This document shows, piece by piece, positions 4,833 to 41,392 of a stretch of DNA of 42,262 bases. The DNA is taken from NCBI GenBank assembly GCA_964368775.1, contig CAYJCX010000002.1, positions 1 to 42,262 of the forward strand, given 5' to 3'. Position 1 is the first letter of the stretch, and each line of letters opens with the position of its first letter. Below the pieces are notes generated by a model that was not told the DNA's origin, ran no database searches, and saw only the letters and a list, made by a program, of their open reading frames with translations. This stretch comes from an uncultured Candidatus Saccharibacteria bacterium (GTDB taxonomy: Bacteria; Patescibacteriota; Minisyncoccia; Phycocordibacterales; UBA9973). Made by a program: the position numbers and the translations under genes.

Positions 4833-4852
4833 GTGGATAAAAAAGTGGATAA
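4833..4852 (-). promoter_or_regulatory. two tandem DnaA-box-like sites (TTATCCAC x2, 12-bp period)
   Basis: Plus-strand AAGTGGATAAAAAAGTGGATAAAAAG. Exact GTGGATAA at 4833-4840 and 4845-4852, which is TTATCCAC on the coding strand. Confidence 0.6.
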
Positions 4853-4913
4853 AAAGGGGAATAAAATAAACTAAATTTTGTGAAACATTTGTGAAACGTC
4901 TTTTCCCCTTTTT
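4851..4913. repeat. 11-bp inverted repeat AAAAAGGGGAA / TTCCCCTTTTT enclosing the TTTGTGAAAC repeats
   Basis: 4851-4861 is the exact reverse complement of 4903-4913. The intervening loop is about 41 nt. Confidence 0.6.
4877..4897. repeat. tandem direct repeat TTTGTGAAAC x2 (11-bp period, iteron-like)
   Basis: Copies at 4877-4886 and 4888-4897, read directly from the sequence. Confidence 0.6.
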
Positions 4914-4921
4914 ATACCCCT

Positions 4922-4976
4922 GTAATTAACAGTTTTAATACACTGGTAATTAACAGTCTAATAACCTGTTAATTAC
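4922..4976. repeat. three copies of GTAATTAACAG (two direct, one inverted), operator-like
   Basis: GTAATTAACAG at 4922-4932 and 4946-4956. The reverse complement CTGTTAATTAC lies at 4966-4976 and overlaps the stop codon of the upstream gene. Confidence 0.6.
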
Positions 4977-5395
4977 TACAATTTACCCTTTAAAATAACA
5001 GCGCCACGCAATCTATCCCTCTTATAATTAGCAAAAACACCCTTATATCCAGTATATACGAAAAATTCCATGGCTAGATCAGTATCTAGCTCTACACCTA
5101 TGTAAATTGTTGGAATTGGGACCTCATTGTTTTCTTTATCAAATGCGCGCCAAGTGGGATCATAGGCATGTTCTCCATCTGTTACCCATGCGTGCAATAC
5201 CCATTCTCTGGTATCTGGAGTTAGAGCTATACCCTCTACATATCTAAATTGTTTATGAATATATGACGCGGCTAAACTATATTCAAAACACTCACCTACT
5301 GGACCACGATTTATAAAATCCGGACAAACTGCCGGTTTATACTCTTTTCCATTGGTTTCTATGAAATTTAGTATTCTAGAAGTTAGTTTTGACAT
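4976..5395 (-). CDS. transglutaminase-like / papain-fold cysteine peptidase domain protein (tentative)
   Basis: 139 aa. The ordered motifs GECFEYS ... LHAWV ... AYDPTW resemble the Cys / His-Ala-Trp / Asp-Pro-Thr signature of transglutaminase-like enzymes. Confidence 0.4.
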   Translation of the reverse strand: MSKLTSRILNFIETNGKEYKPAVCPDFINRGPVGECFEYSLAASYIHKQFRYVEGIALTPDTREWVLHAWVTDGEHAYDPTWRAFDKENNEVPIPTIYIGVELDTDLAMEFFVYTGYKGVFANYKRDRLRGAVILKGKL

Positions 5396-5570
5396 ACTTC
5401 TTCACATTCTTAATACCAAGTATCTTAAATATGGCCTTGCGTTGGTCTAAATTGACTAAGGCTGGGTTAAAACCGAATAGGTAGACTTGTTTACCTTTTC
5501 CCACGAAATAGTGATCCTCGCGGTTTCTGGCGCTAGATTTCCATGTTTCTATGTATATGTCTGGTTTCAT
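5376..5570 (-). CDS. hypothetical protein
   Basis: 64-aa ORF in the co-oriented tightly packed array. It overlaps the next gene by 20 nt. Confidence 0.4.
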   Translation of the reverse strand: MKPDIYIETWKSSARNREDHYFVGKGKQVYLFGFNPALVNLDQRKAIFKILGIKNVKKYVKTNF

Positions 5571-5571
5571 A

Positions 5572-5814
5572 TTAGCCTATGTACTTAACCTCTAATACTC
5601 TAAAGTCTACATAAGCTGTTTCTATTGCAAAACCTATAGCTTTTTTCATCTTCTTAATATACTCCATATCTACTACACTTGTAGTTTCATAGGTAACTTC
5701 TAAATTGTCTCCTGCGGTAATGCCAGTTATACCTAAATCCATTGCTCCCATGAAAGTAGCAATTTTATCGTACATCTTATGCTGGACCGTAACTATAAAT
5801 TTAAGTTTATTCAT
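5572..5814 (-). CDS. hypothetical protein
   Basis: 80-aa ORF with an ATG start, abutting the next gene by 1 nt. Confidence 0.45.
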   Translation of the reverse strand: MNKLKFIVTVQHKMYDKIATFMGAMDLGITGITAGDNLEVTYETTSVVDMEYIKKMKKAIGFAIETAYVDFRVLEVKYIG

Positions 5815-5877
5815 ATGTATAAGTTCTAGTTATATATAAATGGTTATGTATAAGATTTTTGTTATTTTAGTGATATA

Positions 5878-6051
5878 TCATTGGTTTAATCCACAATAAT
5901 CTTCGTACGTCTTCCTAAAGCTATCTCTAGCCTTTACTGCTTGCTTTAGATTCTTAAATGTTCCAACTCTAAACCGGACCCTGTTTATACATTTCTCTAC
6001 TACGTAGCTTCCTTTTCTGTAATATATATTCTGGTAGCCCAGTTTATTCAT
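5878..6051 (-). CDS. AP2-like DNA-binding domain protein (tentative, below the ORF-track cutoff)
   Basis: 57 codons, ATG at 6051 and TGA at 5878-5880, starting 3 nt after the preceding stop. MNKLGYQNIYYRKGSYVVEKCINRVRFRVGTFKNLKQAVKARDSFRKTYEDYCGLNQ resembles the AP2 strand-strand-strand-helix pattern. Confidence 0.4.
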   Translation of the reverse strand: MNKLGYQNIYYRKGSYVVEKCINRVRFRVGTFKNLKQAVKARDSFRKTYEDYCGLNQ

Positions 6052-6054
6052 GTT

Positions 6055-6246
6055 TTAATTTAGAATCTTACTTAGGCCTATAATAGCTAGTGATAGAGAT
6101 AGGACTATCCCTGCGAAGACATTAATGAATAGCCACATATCTGCAAAGGCACTTCTATCAAGATACCGTTTTTTATATTCCTTGGACCAGTTTATCCAGC
6201 CAAAGACATATAAGGTTATTAGTGGTAGGAAATATAGTATTTTCAT
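6055..6246 (-). CDS. small membrane protein (two predicted TM helices)
   Basis: 63 aa with two hydrophobic stretches, ILYFLPLITLYVFGWI and LFINVFAGIVLSLSLAIIGL. Confidence 0.45.
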   Translation of the reverse strand: MKILYFLPLITLYVFGWINWSKEYKKRYLDRSAFADMWLFINVFAGIVLSLSLAIIGLSKILN

Positions 6247-6249
6247 AAA

Positions 6250-6522
6250 TTATTTTCTTCTTTTTACTCTTACTAATTTGAATAGTACCCATTCCCCATG
6301 TTGTGTTGCTTTGTCTTTAAAATTTTTAGTATGGGAAAGTTGAGCCATAGCTTCTTCATGTGAAAAAGCATAACGTCTTATATCACATGGTGTATTAGAA
6401 TTAATTACCATCCAAATATACTTGGCATTTTGAGTAGTTTTATTGGCTAACTGTTGCCCAAGCTCGAAAGCGCAAGCTGGGCATTGTGTATTAAAACACG
6501 TATGTTCTGGTTTATTTCTCAT
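6250..6522 (-). CDS. hypothetical protein
   Basis: 90-aa ORF, tightly packed, with N-terminal CFNTQCPAC cysteines. Confidence 0.45.
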   Translation of the reverse strand: MRNKPEHTCFNTQCPACAFELGQQLANKTTQNAKYIWMVINSNTPCDIRRYAFSHEEAMAQLSHTKNFKDKATQHGEWVLFKLVRVKRRK

Positions 6523-6523
6523 A

Positions 6524-6901
6524 CTATTTATTCTTTAATGCTAAATATAAATTGGCTACTGCAATTAAACGTGTTTCGCCTGTTGCGGACCATGAATACC
6601 AAAATGCTTCATCTCCATACTCGGCGAGGTGGTATTTCCCTGCTCTCCAGTAGTATCTTTTATCTGCTTCATATGTGGCATAGCCAACTTCTTCTTGCAT
6701 AAGACAATTAAAATCTTCTCCACAGGCATCTATAAGTTCTTCTAGGGTAGGGATTATTATTGTATGGGTCATAACTCCATTTACAAAGAAAGGTCTTATA
6801 TCTCCTCCCTCTACTAATTCTCTATTCCAATAACACCAGGTATCTTGTTTACTTTGTGGAAATCCAGCTTCTTTAAGTTTAAGTGCTAATTCGTATGTCA
6901 T
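6524..6901 (-). CDS. hypothetical protein, paralog of 8472..8807
   Basis: 125 aa. Shares ELALKLKEAGF / PTLEELIDA / ATGETRLIAVANLYLAL with CLALKDAGY / PTLDELIYA / ATGGIPIEAVCNLYLKV of the 8472..8807 product. Confidence 0.5.
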   Translation of the reverse strand: MTYELALKLKEAGFPQSKQDTWCYWNRELVEGGDIRPFFVNGVMTHTIIIPTLEELIDACGEDFNCLMQEEVGYATYEADKRYYWRAGKYHLAEYGDEAFWYSWSATGETRLIAVANLYLALKNK

Positions 6902-6904
6902 AAA

Positions 6905-7066
6905 TTATTTTTCTTCCTCTAATAATCTCTCTACCATTTCTTCAACACATTCTTTTGAGACTATATGGTGGTATTTTAAACCAAATAAAGTATAAAATAT
7001 GACTGTTAATCTTTCTCTCCATGTGTTTTCACTTGGTTCTATTAAAATAAAAGTTTGTTTTTTCAT
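6905..7066 (-). CDS. small hypothetical protein (below the ORF-track cutoff)
   Basis: 53 codons, ATG at 7066 and TAA at 6905-6907. It exactly fills the gap between neighbouring genes. Confidence 0.3.
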   Translation of the reverse strand: MKKQTFILIEPSENTWRERLTVIFYTLFGLKYHHIVSKECVEEMVERLLEEEK

Positions 7067-7067
7067 A

Positions 7068-7373
7068 TTAACTAAAATTACCTATTACGTTACAGTCAAG
7101 ACAAATATCATATCCAGCTAGATCATCGCGTCTATGATTAGTATGATCACACGGCTTGTTCTTTTCGTACTCTTCGTCCAATATCTTTAAAACCATCCTT
7201 ACTTCTAATACTGCTCTTGGTGATGGTAAATCAATATTTTCCCCAAAATGTAAAGTATCTATGTTTTTAAATAAATTATTAAATCTTTCTGACGGCTTCA
7301 TAGGCTTACAGTCATCACAAAAGATATATTTACCGTTTTCGTATAGTGGATGTTTTGATTTACATTGCTTCAT
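7068..7373 (-). CDS. Cys-rich (zinc-ribbon-like) small protein
   Basis: The start is taken at the ATG at 7373 (MKQCKSK...), giving a 14-nt overlap with the upstream stop. The track start at 7439 would overlap by 80 nt. Contains CDDC ... CDH ... CLDC motifs. Confidence 0.45.
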   Translation of the reverse strand: MKQCKSKHPLYENGKYIFCDDCKPMKPSERFNNLFKNIDTLHFGENIDLPSPRAVLEVRMVLKILDEEYEKNKPCDHTNHRRDDLAGYDICLDCNVIGNFS

Positions 7374-7629
7374 ATTCCTCTCTTTTACTTCTAATGTGGG
7401 CAACAATCTGGTCGATAGAATTATTGAATCCATAACCATAAAACCAGTCAGTATCTGTCTCTTCTTTAGTATTTTCTAACTTCATCTTCTCTATCTCGCT
7501 CACCAGTTCTTCATCTCTTTGATGGATGATGTCGAGCCAGTAGTTTTCGATGTCTGACCATAAAAATTCTCCATCAAATTCTTCTGATTTTACTTTCCAG
7601 TCTTCGCGTAGTTGGTTAGGTGTTTTCAT
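7360..7629 (-). CDS. hypothetical acidic protein
   Basis: 89-aa ORF within the packed array. Confidence 0.45.
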   Translation of the reverse strand: MKTPNQLREDWKVKSEEFDGEFLWSDIENYWLDIIHQRDEELVSEIEKMKLENTKEETDTDWFYGYGFNNSIDQIVAHIRSKREEYEAM

Positions 7630-7636
7630 AGGGGGG

Positions 7637-8083
7637 TTAAATCTTCTTAGAATCTTTTAATTTCCAATACCATTTATAATAACTTTTAACTGCATCTGTG
7701 AAAGCATATAACAGGGTTTCTTCCTCTTTCATATTGTTTATTACTATAGGATACTGTTTTTTAAATTTTACTTTGCTAATACCGTTTGCGAAAAATACAG
7801 CGTGCATAAATTCGTGAGAAACTACACCTGCTCCAACATAATCAAGGCATGTCAATACGTATCCTGTATGTTTCATTTTATTTATCTTTTTCATGTCTTT
7901 GACCTTATTTGCCTTAAAATATTCACGGTTTATACATACAGCACCAATTACTTCATGCCCAGTTTCCATAGGACACATTTTTTTATATTCTGTTCTCATT
8001 TCATCTATATTTTTAAAAATATACGCCCAAATGAAATTACCTTGTTTATTTACTATTATTTTTTTGCGGTAGTATTTCTTCAT
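7637..8083 (-). CDS. HExxH-motif protein (possible zinc metallopeptidase)
   Basis: 148 aa with a single VVSHEFMHAVF motif and no further support. Confidence 0.35.
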   Translation of the reverse strand: MKKYYRKKIIVNKQGNFIWAYIFKNIDEMRTEYKKMCPMETGHEVIGAVCINREYFKANKVKDMKKINKMKHTGYVLTCLDYVGAGVVSHEFMHAVFFANGISKVKFKKQYPIVINNMKEEETLLYAFTDAVKSYYKWYWKLKDSKKI

Positions 8084-8100
8084 ATCTCTATAGTGATTGA

Positions 8101-8262
8101 TTAGTGGGTAATAGGTCTTATTTTACGACATTTTTTGCACCATTCATGTTTTATATCCCCACAATATTGCCTATTAAAGAATCTAGTATGTGGATGTGGT
8201 TCTATTAGTTCAAATTTATGACCATTAATAAAGCAATATAATTTTTTGATTATTTCTCTCAT
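8101..8262 (-). CDS. small Cys/His-rich hypothetical protein (below the ORF-track cutoff)
   Basis: 53 codons, ATG at 8262 and TAA at 8101-8103, with C...H.H...C...C..C spacing. It fills the intergenic gap. Confidence 0.3.
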   Translation of the reverse strand: MREIIKKLYCFINGHKFELIEPHPHTRFFNRQYCGDIKHEWCKKCRKIRPITH

Positions 8263-8264
8263 AA

Positions 8265-8426
8265 TTATTTTTCTAATTTTCTGTGTCTAGAGCAACGTGT
8301 TCTGCGCGCTTTCCGGCCACATGTTTTGCAAATAAAAGGCGATCCAAGATTCTTAAATCCAAGGGTTATACAAACATTACAGATCCTATCTAGGTGGTGT
8401 TCCCTATTACAAAAACTATCTAACAT
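8265..8426 (-). CDS. small Cys-rich basic protein
   Basis: The start is taken at the ATG at 8426 (MLDSFCNREHH...). The track start at 8456 is a TTG lying inside the promoter. Contains CNVC ... CKTC motifs and a basic tail. Confidence 0.4.
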   Translation of the reverse strand: MLDSFCNREHHLDRICNVCITLGFKNLGSPFICKTCGRKARRTRCSRHRKLEK

Positions 8427-8432
8427 ATTTAG

Positions 8433-8461
8433 ATTATAGCAACCAGCAACCAGCAAGTAAA
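8433..8461 (-). promoter_or_regulatory. sigma70-type promoter TTTACT-N17-TGCTATAAT (extended -10), 6 nt before the ATG
   Basis: The minus strand reads ACTTTACTTGCTGGTTGCTGGTTGCTATAATCTAAATATG. The -10 is at 8438-8433 and the -35 at 8461-8456. The cassette is duplicated at 14710-14738. Confidence 0.6.
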
Positions 8462-8471
8462 GTGCAGGGGG

Positions 8472-8807
8472 TTATTTAAAGTGGATAACTTTTAAATATA
8501 AGTTACAGACCGCTTCTATTGGTATACCGCCAGTAGCTATAGGGGAATTAGGTAGTTTACCGTAGGTTAGGTATGCCTGCCATTTTTCATCATCTATTTG
8601 ATTTAATTGTAAGTAACCATGGCTTATTTTAGATAGGGCGTAAATTAATTCATCTAGAGTAGGGGATAGAAATTTGTTATCTGCGCCCCATGTGTAAAGT
8701 TCTACAATTCTAGATCTTGTATTTTCATTTTTAGAATCTATTGCGTCCGCTTTCTTAAATTTGTAGCCGGCGTCCTTTAATGCAAGGCAATGGAGTTCGC
8801 TTAACAT
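8472..8807 (-). CDS. hypothetical protein, paralog of 6524..6901
   Basis: 111 aa, sharing the motifs listed for 6524..6901. Confidence 0.5.
   Translation of the reverse strand: MLSELHCLALKDAGYKFKKADAIDSKNENTRSRIVELYTWGADNKFLSPTLDELIYALSKISHGYLQLNQIDDEKWQAYLTYGKLPNSPIATGGIPIEAVCNLYLKVIHFK
8481..8488 (-). promoter_or_regulatory. DnaA-box-like site (TTATCCAC) about 58 bp upstream of the putative start point
   Basis: Plus-strand GTGGATAACTTTTA, a 14-mer identical to the copy at 14759-14772. It lies in the last codons of gene 8472..8807. Confidence 0.55.
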
Positions 8808-8813
8808 ATTTTT

Positions 8814-8822
8814 ATTATAGCA
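8814..8822 (-). promoter_or_regulatory. extended -10 promoter (TGCTATAAT), 6 nt before the ATG at 8807
   Basis: The minus strand reads GTGCTATAATAAAAATATG. Confidence 0.5.
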
Positions 8823-8831
8823 CTATAGGTA

Positions 8832-8837
8832 TATAAT
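8832..8837 (+). promoter_or_regulatory. -10 element (TATAAT), 8 nt before the ATG at 8846, back-to-back with the minus-strand promoter
   Basis: The plus strand reads GGTATATAATTAAATCAAATG. Only 12 bp separate the two divergent -10 hexamers. Confidence 0.45.
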
Positions 8838-8845
8838 TAAATCAA

Positions 8846-9076
8846 ATGAAAATCGAATCAGCCTTAAATAATGTGGACCAACTTCGAGAGATCTTGGAAA
8901 ACCTAAAATTGTACGCATCGATTATATCGACCGCACATGGAGAACACTACATAGCCTTAAGAACGCTGGGGGTAGATCGTACCCCTAAAAACCAGCTTTC
9001 TCTCTTCCCTTATCAAACTAATTCTCGCATAGGTAAAAGATACGTAAACCCTATGTATTATGAAATTACCTTTTGA
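8846..9076 (+). CDS. hypothetical protein (plus-strand island)
   Basis: 76-aa ORF, the first gene of a three-gene plus-strand module. Confidence 0.45.
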   Translation: MKIESALNNVDQLREILENLKLYASIISTAHGEHYIALRTLGVDRTPKNQLSLFPYQTNSRIGKRYVNPMYYEITF

Positions 9077-9305
9077 TGAATCAGCTTGGGATATAGGTGT
9101 AGGACAATGCACTGTCCATAACACTGTAACCATTTATGCCATTTTTATGGACATGAATATTAAAACCCAAATAGCCACTGTAGGTGTATTTTGTTCGGAA
9201 TGTTATCGAATACATGGCGAAAATGTACGTATAACACAAAGAAAACTTACACTAAAAGATTTTGGCCAAAGAATGTACTTTGAAGATAAAACTAGAGACA
9301 ATTAA
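9060..9305 (+). CDS. hypothetical protein (plus-strand island)
   Basis: 81-aa ORF overlapping the previous gene by 17 nt. Contains a CSEC motif. Confidence 0.45.
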   Translation: MKLPFDESAWDIGVGQCTVHNTVTIYAIFMDMNIKTQIATVGVFCSECYRIHGENVRITQRKLTLKDFGQRMYFEDKTRDN

Positions 9306-9309
9306 TATT

Positions 9310-9522
9310 ATGTATATCCACTATGTTTGTAAAAACTGTCAAGAAGTCAGTACTAATGATGTGGATATTAATAAATATTCACAGGTAGAGTTTATAAAAA
9401 TACACGCTAAAGTTAGGTGTACTGAATGTAAATTCTTTAGTTTTATCCATGTTGTTGCCCATCTTAATCCTATTCCAAGGAGAAAGACGGATAAGAACGT
9501 GATCCAATCAGTGAAGTTTTAA
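9310..9522 (+). CDS. zinc-ribbon-like small protein (plus-strand island)
   Basis: The start is taken at the ATG at 9310 (MYIHYVCKNC...). The track start at 9262 is a TTG. Contains CKNC ... CTEC. Confidence 0.4.
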   Translation: MYIHYVCKNCQEVSTNDVDINKYSQVEFIKIHAKVRCTECKFFSFIHVVAHLNPIPRRKTDKNVIQSVKF

Positions 9523-9594
9523 TGCTAACGCTTAGCCCGTTAGATTTAGAGCTAGGAGATGAAAGAAGAGTAGTCTCCGCCTATAAAACACAGC

Positions 9595-9625
9595 AAGCCG
9601 GATATTATTCCGGCTTTTGTTTTTC
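9595..9625. terminator. intrinsic terminator at the convergence of the plus-strand island and the minus-strand genes
   Basis: AAGCCGGA-TATTAT-TCCGGCTT followed by TTGTTTTT on the plus strand. The stop codon of minus-strand gene 9605.. lies in the loop. Confidence 0.6.
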
Positions 9626-9892
9626 CTCTGTGTCTTCTTCTATATGGACCTCTAATGGTTTAAATTCATCGTGTGGTATTGATAATTCAAATCCTTTTAT
9701 AATTAGTTTTTTCATCCACCAGAATCCTTTTATATCTTTATTATTTAGATCTGTTCCTGGCTCTCTATTTGGATCTGGGACCACCTTAAATATCCCAAAA
9801 TGTAATAGGAACATATGACTAGCGTCATATAATGGGATAAATCCTAATTTAAAGTACCATTTACCTATTCTAACTGCTCTTTCACCTGCCAT
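9605..9892 (-). CDS. hypothetical protein
   Basis: The start is taken at the ATG at 9892, 1 nt after the upstream TAA (TAATATG). The track start at 9916 would overlap. Confidence 0.4.
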   Translation of the reverse strand: MAGERAVRIGKWYFKLGFIPLYDASHMFLLHFGIFKVVPDPNREPGTDLNNKDIKGFWWMKKLIIKGFELSIPHDEFKPLEVHIEEDTEEKQKPE

Positions 9893-9893
9893 A

Positions 9894-10097
9894 TTATTCT
9901 TCTGCGCCATTAGCATAGTCTAATAAATCTATAACCGCTTGATCCATTAGGGTTATAAAAGGTTTAGCTTGTTTCTTAGTTACAGTAAAGTTTAATTGTA
10001 CATCATGGATGCTATATGAAAATGTCTTTTTAGCTTCTGTGTCTACTACTGTTTTAGTAACTGTACTTTCCTTTTTAGGAAATTTCTTTTTTGTCAT
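9894..10097 (-). CDS. hypothetical protein
   Basis: 67-aa ORF within the packed array. Confidence 0.4.
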   Translation of the reverse strand: MTKKKFPKKESTVTKTVVDTEAKKTFSYSIHDVQLNFTVTKKQAKPFITLMDQAVIDLLDYANGAEE

Positions 10098-10120
10098 AGA
10101 TTTATTATCTAATTATTCTT

Positions 10121-10450
10121 TTAATTTGGCAACTCTGTAAATTTTAAATGACATTCACATAAGCAGCCGCAAGTACAGGCAAATTGTGTACGGTTACAAG
10201 TTATTAAACATTTAATACACAAAACATCATCATGTATTTCCTCTGGTTTATTACCAGTAACCATTTTGGTGGTATCACCGATATGGTCTATTTGATCATT
10301 TAACTCTTTTGCTAAGTTCATTAACTTATAGAAAGATGTTTCCAATTCATTTCTTTGCGCTTTAGTTAAAGGCATATTATCTAAAGTTGTATCAAAAGCA
10401 AGCTCTAGATTTTGCATTTCTTCTCGATTTATTGTTTTTTGGGGTATCAT
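10121..10450 (-). CDS. hypothetical protein with an extremely Cys-rich C-terminus
   Basis: The start is taken at the ATG at 10450, 1 nt after the upstream TAG. The tail is CIKCLITCNRTQFACTCGCLCECH. Confidence 0.4.
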   Translation of the reverse strand: MIPQKTINREEMQNLELAFDTTLDNMPLTKAQRNELETSFYKLMNLAKELNDQIDHIGDTTKMVTGNKPEEIHDDVLCIKCLITCNRTQFACTCGCLCECHLKFTELPN

Positions 10451-10451
10451 A

Positions 10452-10631
10452 CTATTTCTCTTTACCATCATGATAATGGACAAATTCAAATGGACCATTT
10501 AATGCTACTAATAATAGAAAACCACCGATACTTTTAGGTAAACTTTCTGTAAATATTCCAGCAATTATTACTGCAAGACCGAATAATTTTAGAAATTCTT
10601 TTAGAATATAGCTATTTGATGTGTATTTCAT
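10452..10631 (-). CDS. small membrane protein
   Basis: The start is taken at the ATG at 10631 (MKYTSNS...). The track start at 10652 is a TTG. Hydrophobic core LFGLAVIIAGIF. Confidence 0.35.
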   Translation of the reverse strand: MKYTSNSYILKEFLKLFGLAVIIAGIFTESLPKSIGGFLLLVALNGPFEFVHYHDGKEK

Positions 10632-10785: not shown

Positions 10786-10786
10786 A

Positions 10787-10888
10787 TTACCTAAGTAGAA
10801 TTAACCCTGATAAAGTATATCCTGCAAAAAATCCAATCAATATTCCAAACATGAGTATATTAAATTCTCTATCTTTTTGTTTATACAT
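10787..10888 (-). CDS. 33-aa hydrophobic peptide (tentative)
   Basis: ATG at 10888 and TAA at 10787-10789, with the stop 1 nt before the next start. MYKQKDREFNILMFGILIGFFAGYTLSGLILLR. Confidence 0.25.
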   Translation of the reverse strand: MYKQKDREFNILMFGILIGFFAGYTLSGLILLR

Positions 10889-12392: not shown

Positions 12393-12393
12393 A

Positions 12394-14738: not shown

Positions 14739-14757
14739 GTATTTACAATCCACCGGA

Positions 14758-14766
14758 TGTGGATAA
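14758..14766 (-). promoter_or_regulatory. perfect DnaA box (TTATCCACA) in a divergent promoter region
   Basis: Plus-strand TGTGGATAA at 14758-14766. It forms part of the TCCAC-CGGAT-GTGGA inverted repeat at 14749-14763. Confidence 0.6.
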
Positions 14767-14787: not shown

Positions 14788-15168
14788 ATGAAAATAAAGT
14801 TGGACGTATCTCCTTTGTCGGTTAATAAGGCCTGGCAAGGAAGACGTTTTAAAACAGATGATTACAAGCAATTTGAGAGAGATGTTTGTAAATTATTATC
14901 AGCTACATTTAAAGCTAAAAATCAAAAACAGGAGGTTTTTGTGCATTATGTATATCACATACATAACTATGGAAATACTGACACTGCTAATATGGAAAAA
15001 TGTCTAACTGATATTCTAGTTAAGCGTGGCTATATTTTTGATGACCGCTATATACGCGCGATCTATCAAAGGAAAGAAAAGGTAGATTCTGTATCTAAAG
15101 AATGGATAGATATACATATTGTACCTTATGATGGGCAAGATATAGCTGGATTTAAAAGGGTTTTATAG
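14788..15168 (+). CDS. rusA: RusA-like Holliday junction resolvase
   Basis: 126 aa. N-terminal PLSVNKAWQGRRFKTDDYKQFERD and acidic core TDTANMEKCLTDILVKRGYIFDDRYI match the RusA family pattern (..PS.N........Y..W ... D.DN..K...D.L...G...DD..I). Confidence 0.6.
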   Translation: MKIKLDVSPLSVNKAWQGRRFKTDDYKQFERDVCKLLSATFKAKNQKQEVFVHYVYHIHNYGNTDTANMEKCLTDILVKRGYIFDDRYIRAIYQRKEKVDSVSKEWIDIHIVPYDGQDIAGFKRVL

Positions 15169-15172: not shown

Positions 15173-15191
15173 ATGGATAACTAGTGGATAA
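15173..15191 (-). promoter_or_regulatory. two adjacent DnaA-box-like sites (TTATCCAC + TTATCCAT, 11-bp period)
   Basis: Plus-strand AAATGGATAACTAGTGGATAAG. ATGGATAA lies at 15173-15180 and exact GTGGATAA at 15184-15191. Confidence 0.5.
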
Positions 15192-15195: not shown

Positions 15196-15233
15196 GGTTC
15201 CCGTTGGGGTACCCCAATGGGATATTTGGAACC
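15196..15233. repeat. hairpin with a perfect 14-bp palindrome, TTGGGGTACCCCAA
   Basis: Outer arms are GGTTCC (15196-15201) and GGAACC (15228-15233). The inner palindrome is at 15204-15217. Confidence 0.6.
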
Positions 15234-15236
15234 AAC

Positions 15237-15269
15237 AAAAAAAGACCACAGAGCGACTGGGTCTTTTTT
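15237..15269. terminator. bidirectional intrinsic terminator
   Basis: AAAAAAAGACC-ACAGAGCGACTG-GGTCTTTTTT, a stem flanked by an A-run and a T-run. It sits between the convergent rusA-like gene and the late operon. Confidence 0.65.
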
Positions 15270-36900: not shown

Positions 36901-37017
36901 TTCTGGATCACTTTTTCTAAAAATACCTACTGTTGTGTAAGCTGGTGCAGCTAAAGTATAACTACCAGTTATAACTGGAGCTGATCCGGATCCACCTTTT
37001 CTCCATGGGGTTCTCAT
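33952..37017 (-). CDS. tail spike / receptor-binding protein with beta-propeller-like repeats (putative)
   Basis: 1021 aa. The N-terminal LHYVYWDGLDDLGNDI resembles FlgD-Ig-like domains. It has repeated Y/W/G-rich beta segments such as RLYVGDVGSVRMQVFD. Confidence 0.4.
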   Translation of the reverse strand: MRTPWRKGGSGSAPVITGSYTLAAPAYTTVGIFRKSDPEPKTLLRTIWFNEYQSAGLHYVYWDGLDDLGNDIIATNDYEAKVLTHNMAATWETLGNTSQFNHGATVFNSYSWFVNAAISGDNVYIGESFNEGGARAGFKLLTSDILADTQTCYDVLPYATDPNRGNPNDTDLSTEYVCTNGTVTFWGGNDPYAAYSPNTLGQSWVFGTYVSNDTNYPFSSGVSEKCGLGKTYPNAIDVVLNDPTNEITGMCCNASYLWVARGTTGNIYCYDATTGALLSTSSGFTNPRKLAYDSSNGGRVWFLQGVNQMVKGTIGALGALSSGSLLIADFPTDKQTLAIDNATNTLAVICAGSNQQVWFWNISAGTPSTNHFAELGQVGGYAVDSTAANDRFSFTDNSTGQIKGLNQCYIAYDSSSRLYVGDVGSVRMQVFDSSLTFLKTVQMFGALYGVSIDLNDANRGFATAIEFDMTTQQMTANWTAQIPAGFFSQGYGLFKWCSTLSNGRTYATLEEQGVAPADTYVYELESTGTLRDTGVTINEPGLYFGNYLDKDFTIWNIFSASYAVGQQPIIRKKEITGFTGGGDPIYAASWTTVCTLQPITADDCLIDAGNTSFIGITDSGIVVLKNKEITTTSLWHLQGYDVNTGNLVWSTYRPDSRAGDFAGFLGYSGAFPDPRYFERGNIVNTNTFNDIQVVEDLVILIYNGENWKAKQTNYFNMYHTIGLPILQFGTDRVTSEAIEVCGEESSGNGFSMRMSKVDNTTYNVVNGDESVHSALHHWTVTGIDTIDILTVQIAPPTYPPTVGEDQLGSVTFNSILTTTGNITLSNPTTSTWNAQSGIQSYDSYDPDISLELDAGSNIGANRYVDLDITPVYDPALTQWEVFGDINWCDYYGPQDGSYEAGGIIEVLDSGGLVITSLGLGENASDVYLLDANVTDNIITTTDSDIIVNTLGKWNTFSIVVDATDCTITYGQETPVVSSIVDPSAVWNEPTTIRLRVKESGATFHYGTRTLAVKGLRYLETL

Positions 37018-37019
37018 AA

Positions 37020-37862
37020 CTATTGGTAAAGATAACTAATAATAACTATCCCATCGCCACCGGCTGCACCAGGCTGTGCGCCACTTGAATCACCGCCACC
37101 ACCGCCGCCGCCTTGGTTTGCACCGCCAGCAGTAGCAGGAGTGATAGTACCTGGAGAAGCTCCAGCTCCATCGCCGCCGCCGCCGTTTCCGCCTGTTCCA
37201 CCAGGAGCTATGAAAGCGTTATTTTCACTACCACCACCGCCGCCGCCGAAATCACCAGAAAATCCATTAATAGTACAAGTTATTCCAGCGCCACCGTTTC
37301 CTGGAACATTACCAACTGCATTAAATCCTGTTTGGCCTGATCCACCACCGCCACCGGCTGCAAAAGTACCGCTAGAAACTGAATTCCCACCATTAAATTG
37401 AGCGCCAGTCCCTCCACTAACACCGGAAAAGTCAGGACCGCCACCGCCACCATTACCGCCACTAAGACCAGCAGTACCGAAAGTACCACCTCCGCCGCCG
37501 CCTGTAGCTGTAATAGTATCAAAAATTGAATCTCCACCAGTACCGCCGTTTGATCCACCAGTACCGTCACCAGCTGTACCACCAACACCAACGGTAATTG
37601 TATAAGATGTAGCAGTCAATACATGCCCGCCAGCAGTTAATGTTTCACCGCCACCGCCACCACCGCCGCCGCCACCGCCACCGCCGCCCACTACGATATA
37701 CTCACAAGTATCGTCTGTTCCTACTTGGGCTACGTTAAAAAATCCATTACCAACGAATGTATGGACTTTGTAATTCCCAGATGTCGAAATAGAACCACCT
37801 GTAGCTATTGTAAAGATAGTTCCTCCTCCGCCAGTATTAACATGAATACTTTTTCTTGCCAT
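37020..37862 (-). CDS. glycine-rich domain protein (phage tail-associated type)
   Basis: 280 aa. YKVHTFVGNGFFNV...EYIVVGGGGGGGGGGGGGG...YTITVGVGG...GGDGIVIISY matches the known glycine-rich domain pattern (VVGGGGGG ... ITVG.GG ... GG.GIVII.Y). Confidence 0.65.
   Translation of the reverse strand: MARKSIHVNTGGGGTIFTIATGGSISTSGNYKVHTFVGNGFFNVAQVGTDDTCEYIVVGGGGGGGGGGGGGGETLTAGGHVLTATSYTITVGVGGTAGDGTGGSNGGTGGDSIFDTITATGGGGGGTFGTAGLSGGNGGGGGPDFSGVSGGTGAQFNGGNSVSSGTFAAGGGGGSGQTGFNAVGNVPGNGGAGITCTINGFSGDFGGGGGGSENNAFIAPGGTGGNGGGGDGAGASPGTITPATAGGANQGGGGGGGDSSGAQPGAAGGDGIVIISYLYQ
37647..37688 (-). repeat. (GGY)14 trinucleotide tract encoding 14 consecutive glycines
   Basis: The plus strand reads accgccaccgccaccaccgccgccgccaccgccaccgccgcc. 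It is by far the most GC-rich low-complexity patch in the window. Confidence 0.8.
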
Positions 37863-37865
37863 ATA

Positions 37866-38435
37866 TTATGTAGTTCTAGTTGTTTTTAGAGATGCTTGTA
37901 AATTATCTAGTGTAGTAGGGGAAGAAATAACTAATGTTACTTTATCACCTATTGCTACTGCATTTGCTGCTGAACCTGTAGCTGTAGCAATAGTGGTACT
38001 AACAGACACCGCTGAAATACCGGTTACTGGGGTACCATTAATTTGAACCGCAGCGGTACAAGAACCAGCACCAGCTATAATATTTAAAGTGTTTATTGTA
38101 TATGGATAAGCAGCAGATAATTCTAAAGTATATGTCTGGGCTGCAATACTAGTCCCTGAATCTTCAAAAGAGATAGATTCTACTAAACCAACAACATCTA
38201 CACCTGTAACTACTAAATCGCCACCTGTTACTGTAAATCCAGTAATAGCTTTAATAACTTTTAAGTCTGGAGTTGTAGTAGGGTTAGTTACTGTAATTGA
38301 TCCATCGGCTGATCCAACACTAGTTACTGTTCCAGACCCAGAAACGACTGCCCATTCTACATTCTGCTCATCGGCAGAAACTTTAAGAAACTTGCCGGCG
38401 TTTCCTCTAAGATCTGGTAATGATAAGGTTCGCAT
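37866..38435 (-). CDS. structural-module hypothetical protein
   Basis: 189 aa, Thr/Val/Gly/Ser-rich and beta-type. Confidence 0.35.
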   Translation of the reverse strand: MRTLSLPDLRGNAGKFLKVSADEQNVEWAVVSGSGTVTSVGSADGSITVTNPTTTPDLKVIKAITGFTVTGGDLVVTGVDVVGLVESISFEDSGTSIAAQTYTLELSAAYPYTINTLNIIAGAGSCTAAVQINGTPVTGISAVSVSTTIATATGSAANAVAIGDKVTLVISSPTTLDNLQASLKTTRTT

Positions 38436-38440
38436 ATAGA

Positions 38441-38824
38441 TTAATGAATATTACTTGATAATGTAGCTGTTGCAGTAAGTAAACCATCTACATAGCTATC
38501 TACTTCAATAACAAACCAGTTGACTTCATTTACGTTTATTTCTAGATCTACGCGTCCATCTGCACTAAAGACATATCCGGCTGATCCAGAATAAAATGCT
38601 CCAGTGTTTAGATCTGTAGATTGTAAATATTCGTATTGAGTTGGTAATGCTGTTATTGGTTCGTATGATCCTTTTACTTTAACAGTAAAATCTGCGCCAC
38701 CTGTTGCAGATAGTGAAAGTGTAATTATTGGAAAATCGGCTGCTAAAATTGGTTCGTGTTGCATGTCTCCATCTGCTTCTTGTGCAGTTGTAAGTACATA
38801 TCTTAGGAGTTGGCCTGTTAACAT
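38441..38824 (-). CDS. structural-module hypothetical protein
   Basis: 127 aa. Confidence 0.35.
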   Translation of the reverse strand: MLTGQLLRYVLTTAQEADGDMQHEPILAADFPIITLSLSATGGADFTVKVKGSYEPITALPTQYEYLQSTDLNTGAFYSGSAGYVFSADGRVDLEINVNEVNWFVIEVDSYVDGLLTATATLSSNIH

Positions 38825-38856
38825 AAATTTATATAAATTATTTTTATAATTCTAGA

Positions 38857-38905
38857 TTTCTCTATCCCTGCGTCCGCTCATATTTCCGGGCGCAGAGTAG
38901 AGAAA
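38857..38905 (-). terminator. long GC-containing hairpin just after the 203-aa structural gene (attenuator/stabiliser-like, no clear U-run)
   Basis: TTTCTCTA/TAGAGAAA, CTGCG/CGCAG and CCG/CGG nest into one imperfect stem-loop. Confidence 0.4.
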
Positions 38906-38912
38906 CCTCTTG

Positions 38913-39524
38913 TTAGAAGATTCTGTAAATAACAGCGGCAGTAGTACTTGTAAAGTAAAGTCTAAATAGCCCAACTTTGTGAGTTGTAGTGACTGTTAGA
39001 GTGTTACCACCAGTAATAGCACCGGCTGGAGCAGTGATACTTCCATCAAGCGTTAGCGTGATGGTATTAGCACCAGCAGAGTTATCAATATACAGATCTA
39101 CTGTAACGCCACGAGCAATACCAGGAATTAATGCCCCAATTGCAGTTGCAGTTGGAGTAGTAAGAGCCACGGCTGCTGCGGATGTAGAAGTGATATATCC
39201 ACCCAAGACTTCGGCTGCTGAAAGTGTCGCAGTGACATTCTTTGCTACCAAAGTTGGAATTGGAAATCCACCAGTAGAATCTATTGTTGCCCAAACTGGA
39301 GCTGCGGTTGTCCCTGTATTAATATACAAAGTTCCGTCTACAGCATTTTGGATCATTGCACTAGGTGCAAAATATCCAGCAGTTGCAGTTGGCGCACCAG
39401 TTGTTGTTTTAATAGCACTTTGTACAAGGCCATTAAGAGTTGGATCTACACTATTTGAATCTATAAATTCTAGATCGCGTAATGTAACATCCCAAGTTAC
39501 GTTCATTTTATATTGTGTACCCAT
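38913..39524 (-). CDS. abundant-type structural protein (head- or tail-associated, unknown)
   Basis: 203 aa, Ala/Thr/Gly-rich. It is the first gene after the capsid gene and is bracketed by stable hairpins. Confidence 0.4.
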   Translation of the reverse strand: MGTQYKMNVTWDVTLRDLEFIDSNSVDPTLNGLVQSAIKTTTGAPTATAGYFAPSAMIQNAVDGTLYINTGTTAAPVWATIDSTGGFPIPTLVAKNVTATLSAAEVLGGYITSTSAAAVALTTPTATAIGALIPGIARGVTVDLYIDNSAGANTITLTLDGSITAPAGAITGGNTLTVTTTHKVGLFRLYFTSTTAAVIYRIF

Positions 39525-39544
39525 AGTATTTAAGCCTTTTGTGA

Positions 39545-39628
39545 GCTATACCGGAAGCAGATGGCATTGAGAGAGATACCTAACTCTATAACCACTTCTG
39601 CCCCTGGTATAGCCCACAAGGGGCTATA
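39545..39628 (-). promoter_or_regulatory. two mutually exclusive hairpins in the capsid-gene 3' region
   Basis: UAUAGCCC-CUUGU-GGGCUAUA (39628-39608) starts 2 nt after the capsid stop. Its 3' arm is also part of a ~17-bp helix between 39613-39592 and 39564-39545. Confidence 0.4.
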
Positions 39629-39630
39629 TA

Positions 39631-40701
39631 TTAGCTATTAGTTGCAAAAGAATAAACGATACCTTGTGGGTTTACCACACAAAGGCCGTAGCCTGCGCGG
39701 ACAGCAAAGCGGTATATATCTTTTGAGAAATCGACCGCATTGTTATCTTGTGTAGGAGCTGGCTTCATATGTGGAGCTTCCCATTCTGCGTACATCGCCC
39801 AAAAACGATTCATAGGTACATCGCCCTCGAAAGCACCGATACCCCAGTAGTTAGACTTCGCAGTATTACGTTGTCCATTTACAGTTGTATCTAGTTGTTC
39901 TAGAACAAGCATCTTGTAACGGTTCTTGTAAGTGTTTTCTACATTAGGGTTAGCCTGTGTGTTGTCAGAGATAGAACGCAAGAATTGCATTATAGCTTCT
40001 GTAACATTTGGGTTTCCTGAACAGAAAATGTGTGAGAAACGCTTTGAACGTGGAATACCGTAGTTATCTAGAGTATTGTTACGAGCAATTGTTTCTGCTG
40101 AAATCAAACCTGATTTAGAAAACTGTGGGTTTCCTGGAACAATGTTTGTGTAAGTTGTAGCACTGAAAGCTAGTGTGTGAGCTGCGTTAGCAATTGATAG
40201 GCCGTCTCCGGTTGTTGTATCAATTGTATAACCATCCATATCAACATATGATGTACTTGCTGCAAAAGTTACTGCAAGTTGTGTCATATCAAGGTTAATA
40301 CGTTGTGGAGCTGTTTCACCTAGATCGATACCAATAGCTTTAACATCCATCCAACGGTCGAACATTATTGCTTCGTAAGTTAGATCTAGTTCTTTAGCGA
40401 TACGCTTTAGAGAAACATCTTTGTGATAACCGATACCAAATTGAGCCTTAGCTGCTGCTACGCCCTCTGGCTTTGTACTAGCGAAAGTAGAGAAATCTCT
40501 TTCGTTATATCTACGGATATTACCACTGTGTAGTGGTACTGATTCTTTGATGAAAAGTGGCTTTGCATCCCATGGGTATTTTTCGCCGACTTCGGAGAAT
40601 TTCTTAGCTACGAGGTCATAGATCTCGCTAAAGCTAAATGTTGCCATGAATGAGGAGCTATTTCCTGGGTTTGGCTCGTTTGAGCCTGATGGAACTGACA
40701 T
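39631..40701 (-). CDS. major capsid protein (HK97-fold type, putative)
   Basis: 356 aa. Its position follows portal / 222-aa / decoration-like genes. It is followed by a strong hairpin, and its size and composition are typical. Not verified by profile search. Confidence 0.6.
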   Translation of the reverse strand: MSVPSGSNEPNPGNSSSFMATFSFSEIYDLVAKKFSEVGEKYPWDAKPLFIKESVPLHSGNIRRYNERDFSTFASTKPEGVAAAKAQFGIGYHKDVSLKRIAKELDLTYEAIMFDRWMDVKAIGIDLGETAPQRINLDMTQLAVTFAASTSYVDMDGYTIDTTTGDGLSIANAAHTLAFSATTYTNIVPGNPQFSKSGLISAETIARNNTLDNYGIPRSKRFSHIFCSGNPNVTEAIMQFLRSISDNTQANPNVENTYKNRYKMLVLEQLDTTVNGQRNTAKSNYWGIGAFEGDVPMNRFWAMYAEWEAPHMKPAPTQDNNAVDFSKDIYRFAVRAGYGLCVVNPQGIVYSFATNS

Positions 40702-40724
40702 ATATCTAATTCATTAATTAACTA

Positions 40725-41141
40725 TTAACTTGTTAGAAGCGCACGAACTTCAACCAAAGTAGCTGAAATGAAACGTGTAACTTCGAACTGTACACCTGCG
40801 CCTGATACATCTAATCCATAAGAATCAGAGTAAACATTAAAAGGTAGACCGACCATGGCTGCTGTTGCAGTACCATTAGTAACCGGCATTAGCCAACGGT
40901 CTGTACCGTCAACAATACCATCGTATGAAATGTCTTTTGTAGAAGCGTAGTCTGTATCTGTAGATGCGACTACTTCTAAACATAGACCTAGAACTGGGTT
41001 TGCCCCAGCAGCTAGGGGTTTGATATATCCTGATCCATCATATTCAACCCACATACCAATAGCGAAAGCAGTAGATGCTTTCTTTGGTGCAGTTTGGATA
41101 TTTTCGATAAGAATATGTCTTTGACTTTTTGTAACTGGCAT
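40725..41141 (-). CDS. head decoration-like protein (DUF2190-like pattern, tentative)
   Basis: 138 aa directly upstream of the capsid gene, with Gly/Val/Ala-rich beta-type periodicity. Confidence 0.35.
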   Translation of the reverse strand: MPVTKSQRHILIENIQTAPKKASTAFAIGMWVEYDGSGYIKPLAAGANPVLGLCLEVVASTDTDYASTKDISYDGIVDGTDRWLMPVTNGTATAAMVGLPFNVYSDSYGLDVSGAGVQFEVTRFISATLVEVRALLTS

Positions 41142-41180
41142 ATTAATTATTCAAAATAAGGAGCCTTATAAATTTTTATA

Positions 41181-41219
41181 CAAAAATAGGCAAGAACCTA
41201 CTTTCGTACTGTTCTTGCC
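41181..41219 (-). terminator. intrinsic terminator ending the leader RNA, 40 nt upstream of the capsid-operon ATG
   Basis: The minus strand reads GGCAAGAAC-AGUACGAAAGUAG-GUUCUUGCC (9-bp perfect stem) followed by UAUUUUUG. Confidence 0.7.
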
Positions 41220-41346
41220 TGGGCTGTTAGCTTCTTGGCCTAGATGGCTTTCTGCTTTGCGTACGGGGCGACCGTCCGATTTCAGGTGTGGATGTTTGGA
41301 TTCGGAGTATTCCCCTATCCGTATAGCGAGTCCTCCCGGACACGAT
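41182..41346 (-). ncRNA. ~165-nt structured leader / small RNA between the late promoter and its terminator (unknown class)
   Basis: Bounded by a TTGTAC-N17-TATACT promoter and the terminator. It is locally GC-rich. The 5' hairpin GUAUAUCGUGUCC-GGGA-GGACUCGCUAUAC has a GNRA loop. A second hairpin is GGAUAGGGG-AAUA-CUCCGAAUCC. Confidence 0.5.
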
Positions 41347-41352
41347 ATACAT

Positions 41353-41381
41353 AGTATAAAGAAATAAAATAAATTGTACAA
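41353..41381 (-). promoter_or_regulatory. sigma70-type promoter TTGTAC-N17-TATACT (candidate late/capsid promoter)
   Basis: The minus strand reads TTATCCACATGTTGTACAATTTATTTTATTTCTTTATACT. The -35 is at 41381-41376 and the -10 at 41358-41353. Confidence 0.55.
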
Positions 41382-41383
41382 CA

Positions 41384-41392
41384 TGTGGATAA
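41384..41392 (-). promoter_or_regulatory. perfect DnaA box (TTATCCACA), 2 bp upstream of the -35 hexamer
   Basis: Plus-strand TGTGGATAA at 41384-41392. Confidence 0.6.

Follow-up and report, generated by a model that had tools for sequence, protein, structure and literature searches.

A candidate oriC-like origin with a nested DnaA domain IV-HNH nuclease gene, and DnaA boxes at promoters, in a putative phage of Patescibacteria

DnaA is an established bacterial transcription factor, and the autoregulation of dnaA is an example of its action in this role. Phages are known to carry free-standing HNH homing endonucleases, among them the T4 mob genes and I-HmuI, and the GIY-YIG homing endonuclease I-TevI doubles as a repressor of its own promoter. 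The basal unwinding system (BUS) of the origin in B. subtilis and many phyla consists of a pair of DnaA boxes followed by DnaA-trios (PMC8287927, PMC6669920). Here we analyze a stretch of 42,262 nucleotides (the window; contig CAYJCX010000002.1 of GenBank assembly GCA_964368775.1, from an uncultured Candidatus Saccharibacteria bacterium) which carries a gene for a fusion of DnaA domain IV with an HNH nuclease (4214..4789, minus strand) and, around it, what appears to be an oriC-like unwinding module. The window is probably the whole or nearly the whole of a phage genome of ~42 kb, with a host among the Patescibacteria (candidate phyla radiation, or CPR, bacteria). To our knowledge, Patescibacteria and their phages are almost entirely uncultured, and we know of no account of how such phages replicate. 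Our overall explanation combines an oriC-like origin, a mobile DnaA-IV-HNH nuclease nested within it, and DnaA boxes at promoters. We give it a probability of about 0.6, a figure which applies jointly to all of its parts, including the identity of phage and host, the genuineness of the boxes and the mobility of the gene.

The window shares with the BUS a forward box or pair of boxes, a short spacer (4 nt counted from the last box and 13 nt from the better one), a (TAA)5 run and an AT-rich stretch, and the order and spacing of these elements match those of the Patescibacteria dnaA-dnaN origins examined. Unlike the BUS, the module resides in a phage, has a protein-coding gene threaded through it, places weak boxes next to the trios and has neither dnaA nor dnaN adjacent.

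The oriC-like module and its nested gene

Read on the minus strand, the region 4160-4975 would represent a host-DnaA-dependent, oriC-like phage origin carrying a homing-type nuclease. Upstream of the fusion gene, two exact DnaA boxes (the 8-mer TTATCCAC) form a tandem pair at 12-nt phasing. The distal box (4845..4852, minus strand) is centered about 54 nt upstream of the transcription start of the gene; the proximal box (4833..4840, minus strand) is centered at about -42 and is followed by 2 nt, a poor -35 hexamer (TGGGCT), 17 nt and TATAAT. A degenerate box, TTATACACC (4807..4815, minus strand), abuts this -10 element in what is likely an autoregulatory position. Farther out, two 24-nt direct repeats (4909..4956, plus strand) each contain GTAATTAACAG (TAATTAACA), possibly a weak reversed box, and occupy the place where relatives have reversed box arrays phased at 11-12 nt; TTATTAACA is common in host oriC. 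Between these repeats and the perfect box pair lie two tandem copies of GTTTCACAAA, 11 nt apart (4877-4897, minus strand) and followed by the AT-rich run AATTTAGTTTATTTTATT; GTTTCACAAA might bind another factor or be a very weak box.

At the other end of the gene, three forward box-like 9-mers fall in the final codons (4221..4248, minus strand): TTATCCCCA at 4248-4240, ATATTCACA at 4238-4230 and CAATCCCCA at 4229-4221, the last of which begins 15 nt short of the gene end, a position shared by the other members of the fusion family. After a 4-nt spacer, TGAC, comes a (TAA)5 run of DnaA-trios (4202..4216, minus strand), the first TAA of which is the stop codon of 4214..4789. The AT-rich stretch ATATAATATATAAGATTTAG (4183..4201, minus strand), the presumed unwinding region, overlaps a promoter-like match for terS (TTCACA-17-AATAAT, 4235-4207), and a reversed box, TTGTCCACA (4165..4173, plus strand), closes the module 41 nt downstream of the stop codon. 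Most relatives have a reversed box at +28 to +59 of the stop codon.

As defined in cellular origins, a BUS requires a DnaA box with no more than two mismatches, a gap of 0-16 nt and at least three trinucleotides with a central A (PMC8287927). The window provides ATATTCACA, with two mismatches, then 13 nt, then (TAA)5 at 4216-4202, and the AT-rich sequence at 4201-4183 has counterparts in host oriC and downstream of the fusion genes in related loci. We searched both strands for a strict composite pattern (a box with up to two mismatches, a gap of 0-16 nt, and TA[AG] three or more times), which matched once in the 42 kb window, at 4216, the stop codon of the fusion gene. Of 16 family loci, 8 have this pattern exactly at the fusion stop codon, as does the comparison locus L347. 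Its frequency in controls was 0.30 per 100 kb over 1.64 Mb, with no match in 234 kb of recA loci; in the positive control, exactly one match on the dnaA strand was present in 30 of 48 real dnaA loci.

The host origins themselves follow a common plan. In 38 Patescibacteria dnaA-dnaN spacers, reversed distal boxes are followed by a forward pair of the form ..ATCCACAT[A/T]TCCACAGG.., four nucleotides, trios (TAGTAATAG... / TAGTAATAGTAA) and an AT-rich stretch. The 3' flanks of the fusion genes show these elements in the same order, with the stop codon itself as the first trio; to judge by this correspondence, the 3' end of the fusion gene is a copy of the unwinding module of the host oriC. The first-pass annotation of the window had proposed the pair at 4833 and 4845 as an activator site, which now seems too simple, as the pair belongs to an oriC-like module of boxes, DnaA-trios and an AT-rich stretch. 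A second box-plus-trio match (TTTTTCACA, 1 nt, TAGTAATAATAA) was noted in a Patescibacteria chromosome, L121, at 8382, just upstream of dnaA, and suggests a bipartite origin flanking dnaA there.

The product of the nested gene is a 191-residue protein with DnaA domain IV at residues 1-95, a disordered linker and an HNH nuclease at 115-178. Pfam matches are to Bac_DnaA_C (PF08299; residues 9-72, E = 1.6e-14, 54.1 bits against a cut-off of 31.5) and HNH (PF01844; residues 131-165, E = 5e-10, 39.8 bits against 21.4). Homologues of the same architecture form ~50 protein clusters at 35-51% identity, mostly on contigs of ~40 kb. C131, C134, H143, H144, N158, C163, N165, H166 and H167 are invariant in 24 aligned sequences; in the DnaA-like domain, R38 and H63 are invariant across the family and D62 is nearly so. 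Aligned with domain IV of a Patescibacteria DnaA, the N-terminal domain shows 36% identity, and the alignment covers the VKxR, SYP and (R/K)DHTTVIHS segments, which we take to carry the base contacts in the E. coli domain IV-DNA structure. R38, P52, D62, H63, T64 and H68 align with what are presumably E. coli R399, P423, D433, H434, T435 and H439. An AlphaFold (AF2) model consists of two confident domains, a disordered linker and a disordered C-terminal tail, with the HNH beta-beta-alpha-metal motif formed by strands 141-144 and 159-162 and helix 164-171. The nearest folds found by Foldseek are DnaA DNA-binding domains (3pvp, 1j1v, 8btg) and the HNH domains of McrA, IscB, Cas9 and Gme, and the target-normalized TM-scores of the DnaA-like domain are 0.73 to 3pvp and 0.69 to 1j1v. 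This DnaA-IV-HNH family is conserved and apparently undescribed, as we found no description of such a fusion in the searchable literature. The phage DnaA-like helix-turn-helix protein invoked by the first-pass annotation is real, with its box-reading residues kept, but its intact HNH fusion and its mobile family had been missed.

Boxes are concentrated around this gene throughout the family. We surveyed sites with no more than one mismatch in 17 non-redundant family loci and 184 control loci. The 300 bp upstream of the fusion gene have 8.6 sites per kb, and the zone up to 60 nt from its stop codon has 9.2 per kb (15 of 19 of them sense), compared with 0.74 per kb in the gene body, 0.41 per kb in the rest of the same loci and 0.27 per kb in the controls. 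Box density in the upstream and stop-codon zones is higher by a factor of 20-30. For exact boxes, nine fusion-bearing loci contain 27 against 5.4 expected, and 31 HNH-only loci contain 13 against ~14. The layout is conserved as well, with reversed distal boxes at 11-12 nt phasing, forward proximal boxes, one of them over the core promoter, and forward boxes beginning 34 and 15 nt before the gene end. Boxes of the type TTATACAC(A/C) occur in the final ~45 nt before the start codon of most fusion homologues. Box variants and the RDHTT-type recognition motif of each family member were tabulated side by side.

Conserved C-terminal residues reading YPQ, NPQ or STP are the 3' boxes translated in differing frames, and the constraint at the 3' end of the gene consequently acts on the DNA. 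A "YPQ/NPQ" tail was considered as a peptide motif and rejected, since the frame of the underlying TCCACA varies between members and the tail is disordered in the model. We also rejected the fusion protein as a replication initiator or unwinding factor, because it is without the AAA+ domain that binds trios.

The gene appears to move. In one Patescibacteria lineage (L121 and L241) the fusion is located between dnaA and dnaN, inside oriC. The genome closest to L241, L210, lacks it, although its DnaA is 99.6% identical and the flanks are 93% and 87% identical; all other Patescibacteria dnaA-dnaN loci that we fetched also lack it. Between collinear flanks, L241 has 680 bp in place of the 122 bp of L210, whose empty oriC fragment includes TTATACACATTTCCACAGGGTTAGTAGTAATAG, a presence/absence polymorphism of the kind that homing endonuclease genes show. 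Both junctions in L241 coincide with DnaA boxes, as expected of a box-directed enzyme: a reversed box (TGTGAATAA) marks the left one, and the right one falls within a forward box (TCCACAGGG). In phages L001 and L005 the flanks are 96-98% identical and the cassettes have strongly diverged. These patterns make it likely that the fusion gene is a mobile, homing-endonuclease-like cassette aimed at oriC-type box clusters. A search of viral contigs with a 23-nt flank pattern for an empty phage allele matched only two loci already in the sample. On another bacterial contig, L345 (6888-7460; also L346), a homologue lies at the contig end among housekeeping neighbors (def, hisS, lepB). This protein, P0003, is the second-closest to that of the window at 47% identity, and may mark a second, different chromosomal insertion.

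Across the window, TTATCCAC occurs in six exact copies, at 4833, 4845, 8481, 14759, 15184 and 41385, all on the minus strand, with TTATCCAT at 15173-15180, just as the first-pass annotation had listed them. Its estimate of one or two copies by chance was also right (dinucleotide-shuffle mean, 1.67). Six copies of the exact 8-mer were reached in 1 of 100 shuffles; the 9-mer with one mismatch is not enriched window-wide (20 observed, 14.3 expected). With our own gene set, intergenic DNA amounts to 2525 nt (6.0% of the window) and contains five of the six sites (binomial P = 4e-6), the sixth (8481-8488) lying within the final codons of gene 8472..8807, and no exact site occurs from 15579 to 41141; both the placement and the box-free late structural block had been noticed before. 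An order-1 Markov model of intergenic DNA predicts 0.087 copies against the five observed (P = 4e-8), and among all strand-collapsed intergenic 8-mers TTATCCAC ranks first for over-representation. Second, with 3 copies, is TGGGGTAC. The one-strand orientation of all six has a two-sided P of ~0.03; the minus strand is also the coding strand for nearly all genes of the window. Two sites, 14758-14766 and 41384-41392, read TTATCCACA and conform to the 9-mer consensus TTATNCACA / TT[AT]TNCACA. The remaining four are TTATCCACT, off the consensus at position 9 only. Their placement is non-random, and we favor the view that these are genuine DnaA boxes of two kinds, one belonging to the origin and one promoter-proximal.

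Near-consensus boxes (no more than one mismatch) outside the origin show a strand bias beyond composition, in a direction which varies between phages, and they are often inside coding sequence. Sense-to-antisense counts are 13:0 in L347 (3.0 and 3.8 expected), 8:2 in L002, 11:5 in the window, 3:10 in L005 and 0:5 in L038.

As for the rest of the window, its RecA is nearest to RecA proteins of Patescibacteria, mostly Paceibacterota, at 64-67% identity, which argues for a CPR host. By our reading, the genes run from portal, TerL and a possible TerS through a series of small early genes to RecA, a NinG/Rap-like nuclease and RusA, with lysis genes and a long structural block after them; we assigned portal, TerL and TerS ourselves from the translations and from homologues in related loci, apart from the family scans. 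Pfam or PHROGs scans (20 scans over 14 ORFs, or open reading frames, mostly of the early region) gave RecA, RusA and the NinG/Rap-like nuclease as the only DNA-metabolism matches, and no initiator, helicase, primase or polymerase is evident in the ORF translations of the window, of which these 14 were family-scanned. Neither half of the window matched any of 50,697 phage records in a near-identity search, tRNA and Rfam scans of the window returned no matches, and the window has no terminal repeats of 10 nt or more.

Boxes at promoters

Promoter geometry was assessed with the transcription start taken 7 nt after the -10 element. The box TTATCCACA at 41384..41392 (minus strand) is preceded by an intrinsic terminator and followed, after 2 nt, by the late promoter TTGTAC-17-TATACT (41381-41353; -10 at 41358-41353), from which its center is at -42. 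A solitary box, TTATCCACT (8480..8488, minus strand), is centered at -58 from the early promoter at 8461-8433 (TTTACT-17-TGcTATAAT; -10 at 8438-8433), and another, TTATCCACA (14758..14766, minus strand), at -59 from the early promoter at 14738-14710 (-10 at 14715-14710). With the fusion-gene promoter (-10 at 4806-4801; boxes at -42 and -54), the distances given in the first-pass annotation hold throughout. No site in the early region matches sigma-70 better than these two early promoters, which score 10/12 and both have a TG-extended -10. They share a 31-nt core that is 94% identical, and are not fully independent for that reason; the sequence from box to -35 differs. The box at 14758-14766 also lies in the spacer/-35 area of a putative divergent rusA promoter (TGtTAAAAT just before the ATG at 14788), much as had been suggested, and makes a small palindrome with GTGGAT at 14748-14753. 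On this placement, the boxes at 41385, 14759 and 8481 are best read as promoter-proximal sites for host DnaA, the phage protein or both.

By geometry alone, a class II-like arrangement, with 25 nt between box and -10, is found at 41384-41392, at 4832-4840 and at 18567 in L347. The 25-nt distance fits a box, 2 nt, a hexamer, 17 nt and the -10, and both -42 promoters of the window have a poor -35. This box-2 nt-(-35)-17 nt-(-10) arrangement thus recurs at the fusion-gene promoter, in support of the proposal that the boxes are regulatory in position and conserved. Conservation of the boxes in related phages had been raised as a check, and the late-promoter box itself recurs in four loci. In L347, which has a fusion, it is TTATCCCCA, 25 nt from the -10 and with the same leader; in L124, without a fusion, TTATCCCCA stands ~34 nt from the -10, about one helical turn farther. 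L002 (with a fusion) has an exact box 48 nt from the -10, and L351 (without) also has an exact box. At 12971 in L002, upstream of the portal gene, the layout of box, -35 and -10 is similar, with a spacer of 16 or 17 nt depending on the choice of hexamer.

Fusion loci also have a 2.7-fold excess of exact boxes away from the gene flanks (20 against 7.5 expected, P = 1e-4). The low enrichment in relatives without a fusion leans toward the phage protein as the cognate binder, and the presence of boxes at promoters in L124, L351 and L359, all without a fusion, leans toward host DnaA. At 1880-1905 in L359, TTATCCACAtaaTTATCCACA contains two perfect 9-mers phased at 12 nt between promoter and start codon. 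In L362, which also lacks a fusion, six exact boxes lie on one strand within 860-1400, and three of them each follow a repeated promoter-like element, cCTTGTATAATTGTtAAGGAG.

Boxes are not the sole control, given that several good promoter matches have none and that the late promoter leads into a terminator-ended leader. Promoter matches without a box are found at 41579-41551 (11/12), at 15360-15332 and at the promoter serving gene 8472..8807. The late leader (41150-41350, minus strand), which separates the late promoter from the first late gene by ~190 nt, has a strong intrinsic terminator at its end. It has counterparts in L124 (6626-6801) and L347 (18612-18802), with conserved blocks GTGTCnGGGAnGACTCGC, CCAAACATC and AACAG..AAGGCAAGAACA; no Rfam family matched it, and a 72-residue ORF at 41166..41384 is probably not a gene. 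Since the layout ends in a terminator, as in the lambda pR'-6S RNA-tR' segment that it resembles, late expression probably also needs antitermination. On these grounds, the earlier designation of a DnaA-type protein as "master regulator" of the phage over-reaches.

The remaining tandem pair, TTATCCAC-tag-TTATCCAT (15173..15191, minus strand; 11-nt phasing), is upstream of no minus-strand gene; rusA and a small terminator-bounded unit converge on it from either side. Immediately upstream, a 38-nt hairpin (15196-15233, GGTTCC...GGAACC) adjoins it and encloses a perfect 14-nt palindrome, TTGGGGTACCCCAA (15204-15217). Nearby, the promoter-like TTTACA-17-TGcTACTAT (15360-15332, minus strand) has a hairpin and T-run terminator (15236-15268) ~60-95 nt downstream; the segment 15236-15360 (minus strand), part of the 410 non-coding nt that follow the lysis genes, may encode a small RNA. 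At the other end of the window, the best sigma-70 match overall, TTGAAA-17-TATAAT (41579-41551, minus strand, 11/12), is placed where gene 41557..42225 ends, with a terminator hairpin, aaaaccccgacattgctgtccggggtttt, no more than ~80 nt downstream of it and a second terminator just before the late-promoter box; the region 41470-41579 (minus strand) may be another short transcription unit.

Proposed mechanism and competing explanations

The mechanism that we propose starts from observations: the enrichment of the boxes, the architecture of the module, the domain content of the fusion, the conservation of the layout and the insertion polymorphism. Host DnaA, bound at the origin boxes, would oligomerize along the trios, open up the AT-rich stretch and bring in the host replisome. 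On the minus strand, the proposed origin would read weak reversed boxes, forward boxes (the perfect pair at 4833 and 4845), the last forward group, 4 nt, (TAA)5, the AT-rich stretch and the reversed box. The fusion gene would be nested exactly, its last codons supplying the final boxes and its stop codon the first trio. The nuclease would cut or nick origins that lack the gene, in rival phages and possibly in the host, and the fusion protein would repress its own promoter through its boxes, as I-TevI does. Boxes at -42 on promoters with a poor -35 have an activation-like geometry, and those at about -58 may act on the two strong early promoters. A more specific version, in which the origin is a captured or modeled oriC and the nuclease homes to the origins of rival phages and of the host, halting host initiation and copying itself, is tentative. 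The same reserve applies to its corollary, that origin function survives because the final codons recreate the last boxes and the stop codon serves as the first trio.

Several points weigh against this explanation. The module of the window is weaker than those of relatives, with 1, 2 and 3 mismatches in the three boxes closest to the trios and only the TAATTAACA repeats in place of a clear reversed distal array. The AT-rich stretch and trios also score as a terS promoter, two readings which sequence cannot separate, and the GC skew of the window tracks transcription direction and gives no origin signature. The insertion was seen in one cellular origin only, and recombination between phage and host origins, without nuclease-driven homing, could have produced the dnaA-dnaN copy; the second chromosomal copy, in L345, is not beside dnaA and lacks a trio run. 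The abutting pair TTATACACA|TTTCCACAG is split apart in L241, but L037, L038 and L040 retain a close 3' box pair, so that self-immunity by target splitting is not general. Fusion-less relatives have box counts near expectation (18 against 11.5, or 12 against 10.7 without L362). DNA binding, unwinding, cleavage and the effect on transcription are all functions that we infer from sequence.

A purely transcriptional explanation, in line with the first-pass annotation, would have host DnaA or the phage protein as the main promoter regulator, the gene-flank boxes as autoregulatory operators and no origin at all. Box centers at -42, -42, -54, -58 and -59 from sigma-70-type promoters, the poor -35 hexamers of the -42 promoters, the same box-to-(-10) distance at the late promoter of L347 with a similar layout before the portal gene of L002, and the conserved box over the core promoter of the fusion gene are all consistent with it. 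It leaves unexplained the trio run that half of the family members have from the stop codon onward, the AT-rich stretch, the closing reversed box and the point-by-point match to host oriC, and it offers no reason for an invariant HNH active site or for the place of the gene in a bacterial oriC; several strong promoter matches are free of boxes, and the late promoter leads into a terminator-ended leader. We consider it unlikely. More doubtful still is the idea that the boxes are the work sites of the fusion nuclease itself, either for T5-like strand-specific nicks or for a cos/pac packaging cut beside terS. A single HNH domain usually nicks, and the fold neighbors include IscB, Cas9 and the nicking HNH of Gme; all six exact boxes are on one strand, the strand bias of near-consensus boxes noted above in L347, L002, L005 and L038 has the same flavor, and the gene is directly upstream of terS-terL-portal in the window, L347 and L002. 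However, it is 2-8 kb from the terminase genes in L038, L039, L040 and L122 and has no terminase nearby in the bacterial chromosome of L121, the direction of the bias varies between phages, and nicking explains neither the promoter placement nor the trio module.

That the boxes are a compositional artefact, a T-rich 8-mer in AT-rich intergenic DNA with one copy added by promoter duplication, is effectively refuted. The shuffles that reach six copies, the lack of enrichment of one-mismatch variants and the 31-nt core shared by the promoters at 8481 and 14759 are what such an account can draw on. Against them stand the intergenic excess of the top-ranked 8-mer (5 against 0.087), the differing sequence between box and -35 at the two early promoters, and the 20-30-fold enrichment of the motif at homologous genes in 16 other loci, with background levels in the 184 controls.

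Should the origin-plus-nuclease explanation be right, a full box-plus-trio module in a phage without replication genes would mean that the chromosomal initiation mechanism has been borrowed wholesale, and a DnaA-IV-guided nuclease inside origins would extend homing endonucleases to non-coding, essential cis-elements. The protein would be a natural reagent that reads the most conserved DNA motif of bacterial origins, and it suggests a direct route for phage interference with host replication initiation. A stop codon which is also the first DnaA-trio could serve as a cue for phage origins in metagenomes, and with the box-bearing promoters one could test whether viral transcription is coupled to the host initiator.

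Relation to known systems

In common with homing endonucleases, the fusion is a small ORF with its own promoter that shows presence/absence polymorphism at one site, with similarity breaking at recognition-type sites. Its cassettes are swapped between near-identical phages, and boxes lie on its own promoter. It differs in using DnaA domain IV rather than NUMOD, IENR1 or zinc-finger modules, in having a non-coding origin as the target of its presumed cleavage, and in the persistence of intact box pairs beside the gene. The likeness to dnaA autoregulation is that boxes are on or next to promoters, including the core promoter of the gene for a box-binding protein; the differences are that the promoters are viral and that the binder could be a truncated DnaA look-alike without the AAA+ domain.

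HNH proteins of the HK97 gp74 type, which belong to packaging modules and assist terminase, are small and have no sequence-specific DNA-binding domain. As with gp74, the HNH gene is directly upstream of terS-terL-portal in the window, L347 and L002. This adjacency to terminase and portal genes is not conserved in the family, as shown by the distances of 2-8 kb in L038, L039, L040 and L122 and by the chromosomal copy in L121. The P1 oriR, pSC101 and F origins use host DnaA boxes and depend on an element-encoded Rep initiator with iterons. They resemble the window as mobile replicons with host DnaA boxes at the origin, but no Rep or iteron system was seen in the window, and the origin elements there are arranged as in oriC itself.

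The injection-stop region of T5-like phages contains a cluster of DnaA boxes proposed to arrest injection via membrane-bound DnaA (bioRxiv 10.1101/866236). That cluster likewise consists of conserved consensus or near-consensus boxes, paired and in non-coding phage DNA, with variants TTATCCCCA and TTATCAACA. Unlike the window, T5 has its own replication genes, an origin elsewhere, no DnaA-domain protein and no trio module. The Y1 HUH proteins TnpA-REP/TIRYT carry a C-terminal Bac_DnaA_C-like domain (PMC6006769). Their catalytic domain is HUH/Y1 and their repeats, GGGG[AT][CG]A[CG], are not box-like, in contrast to the HNH fusion, which is flanked by canonical boxes. What the two have in common is a DnaA domain IV-like helix-turn-helix joined to the DNA-cleaving enzyme of a mobile element.

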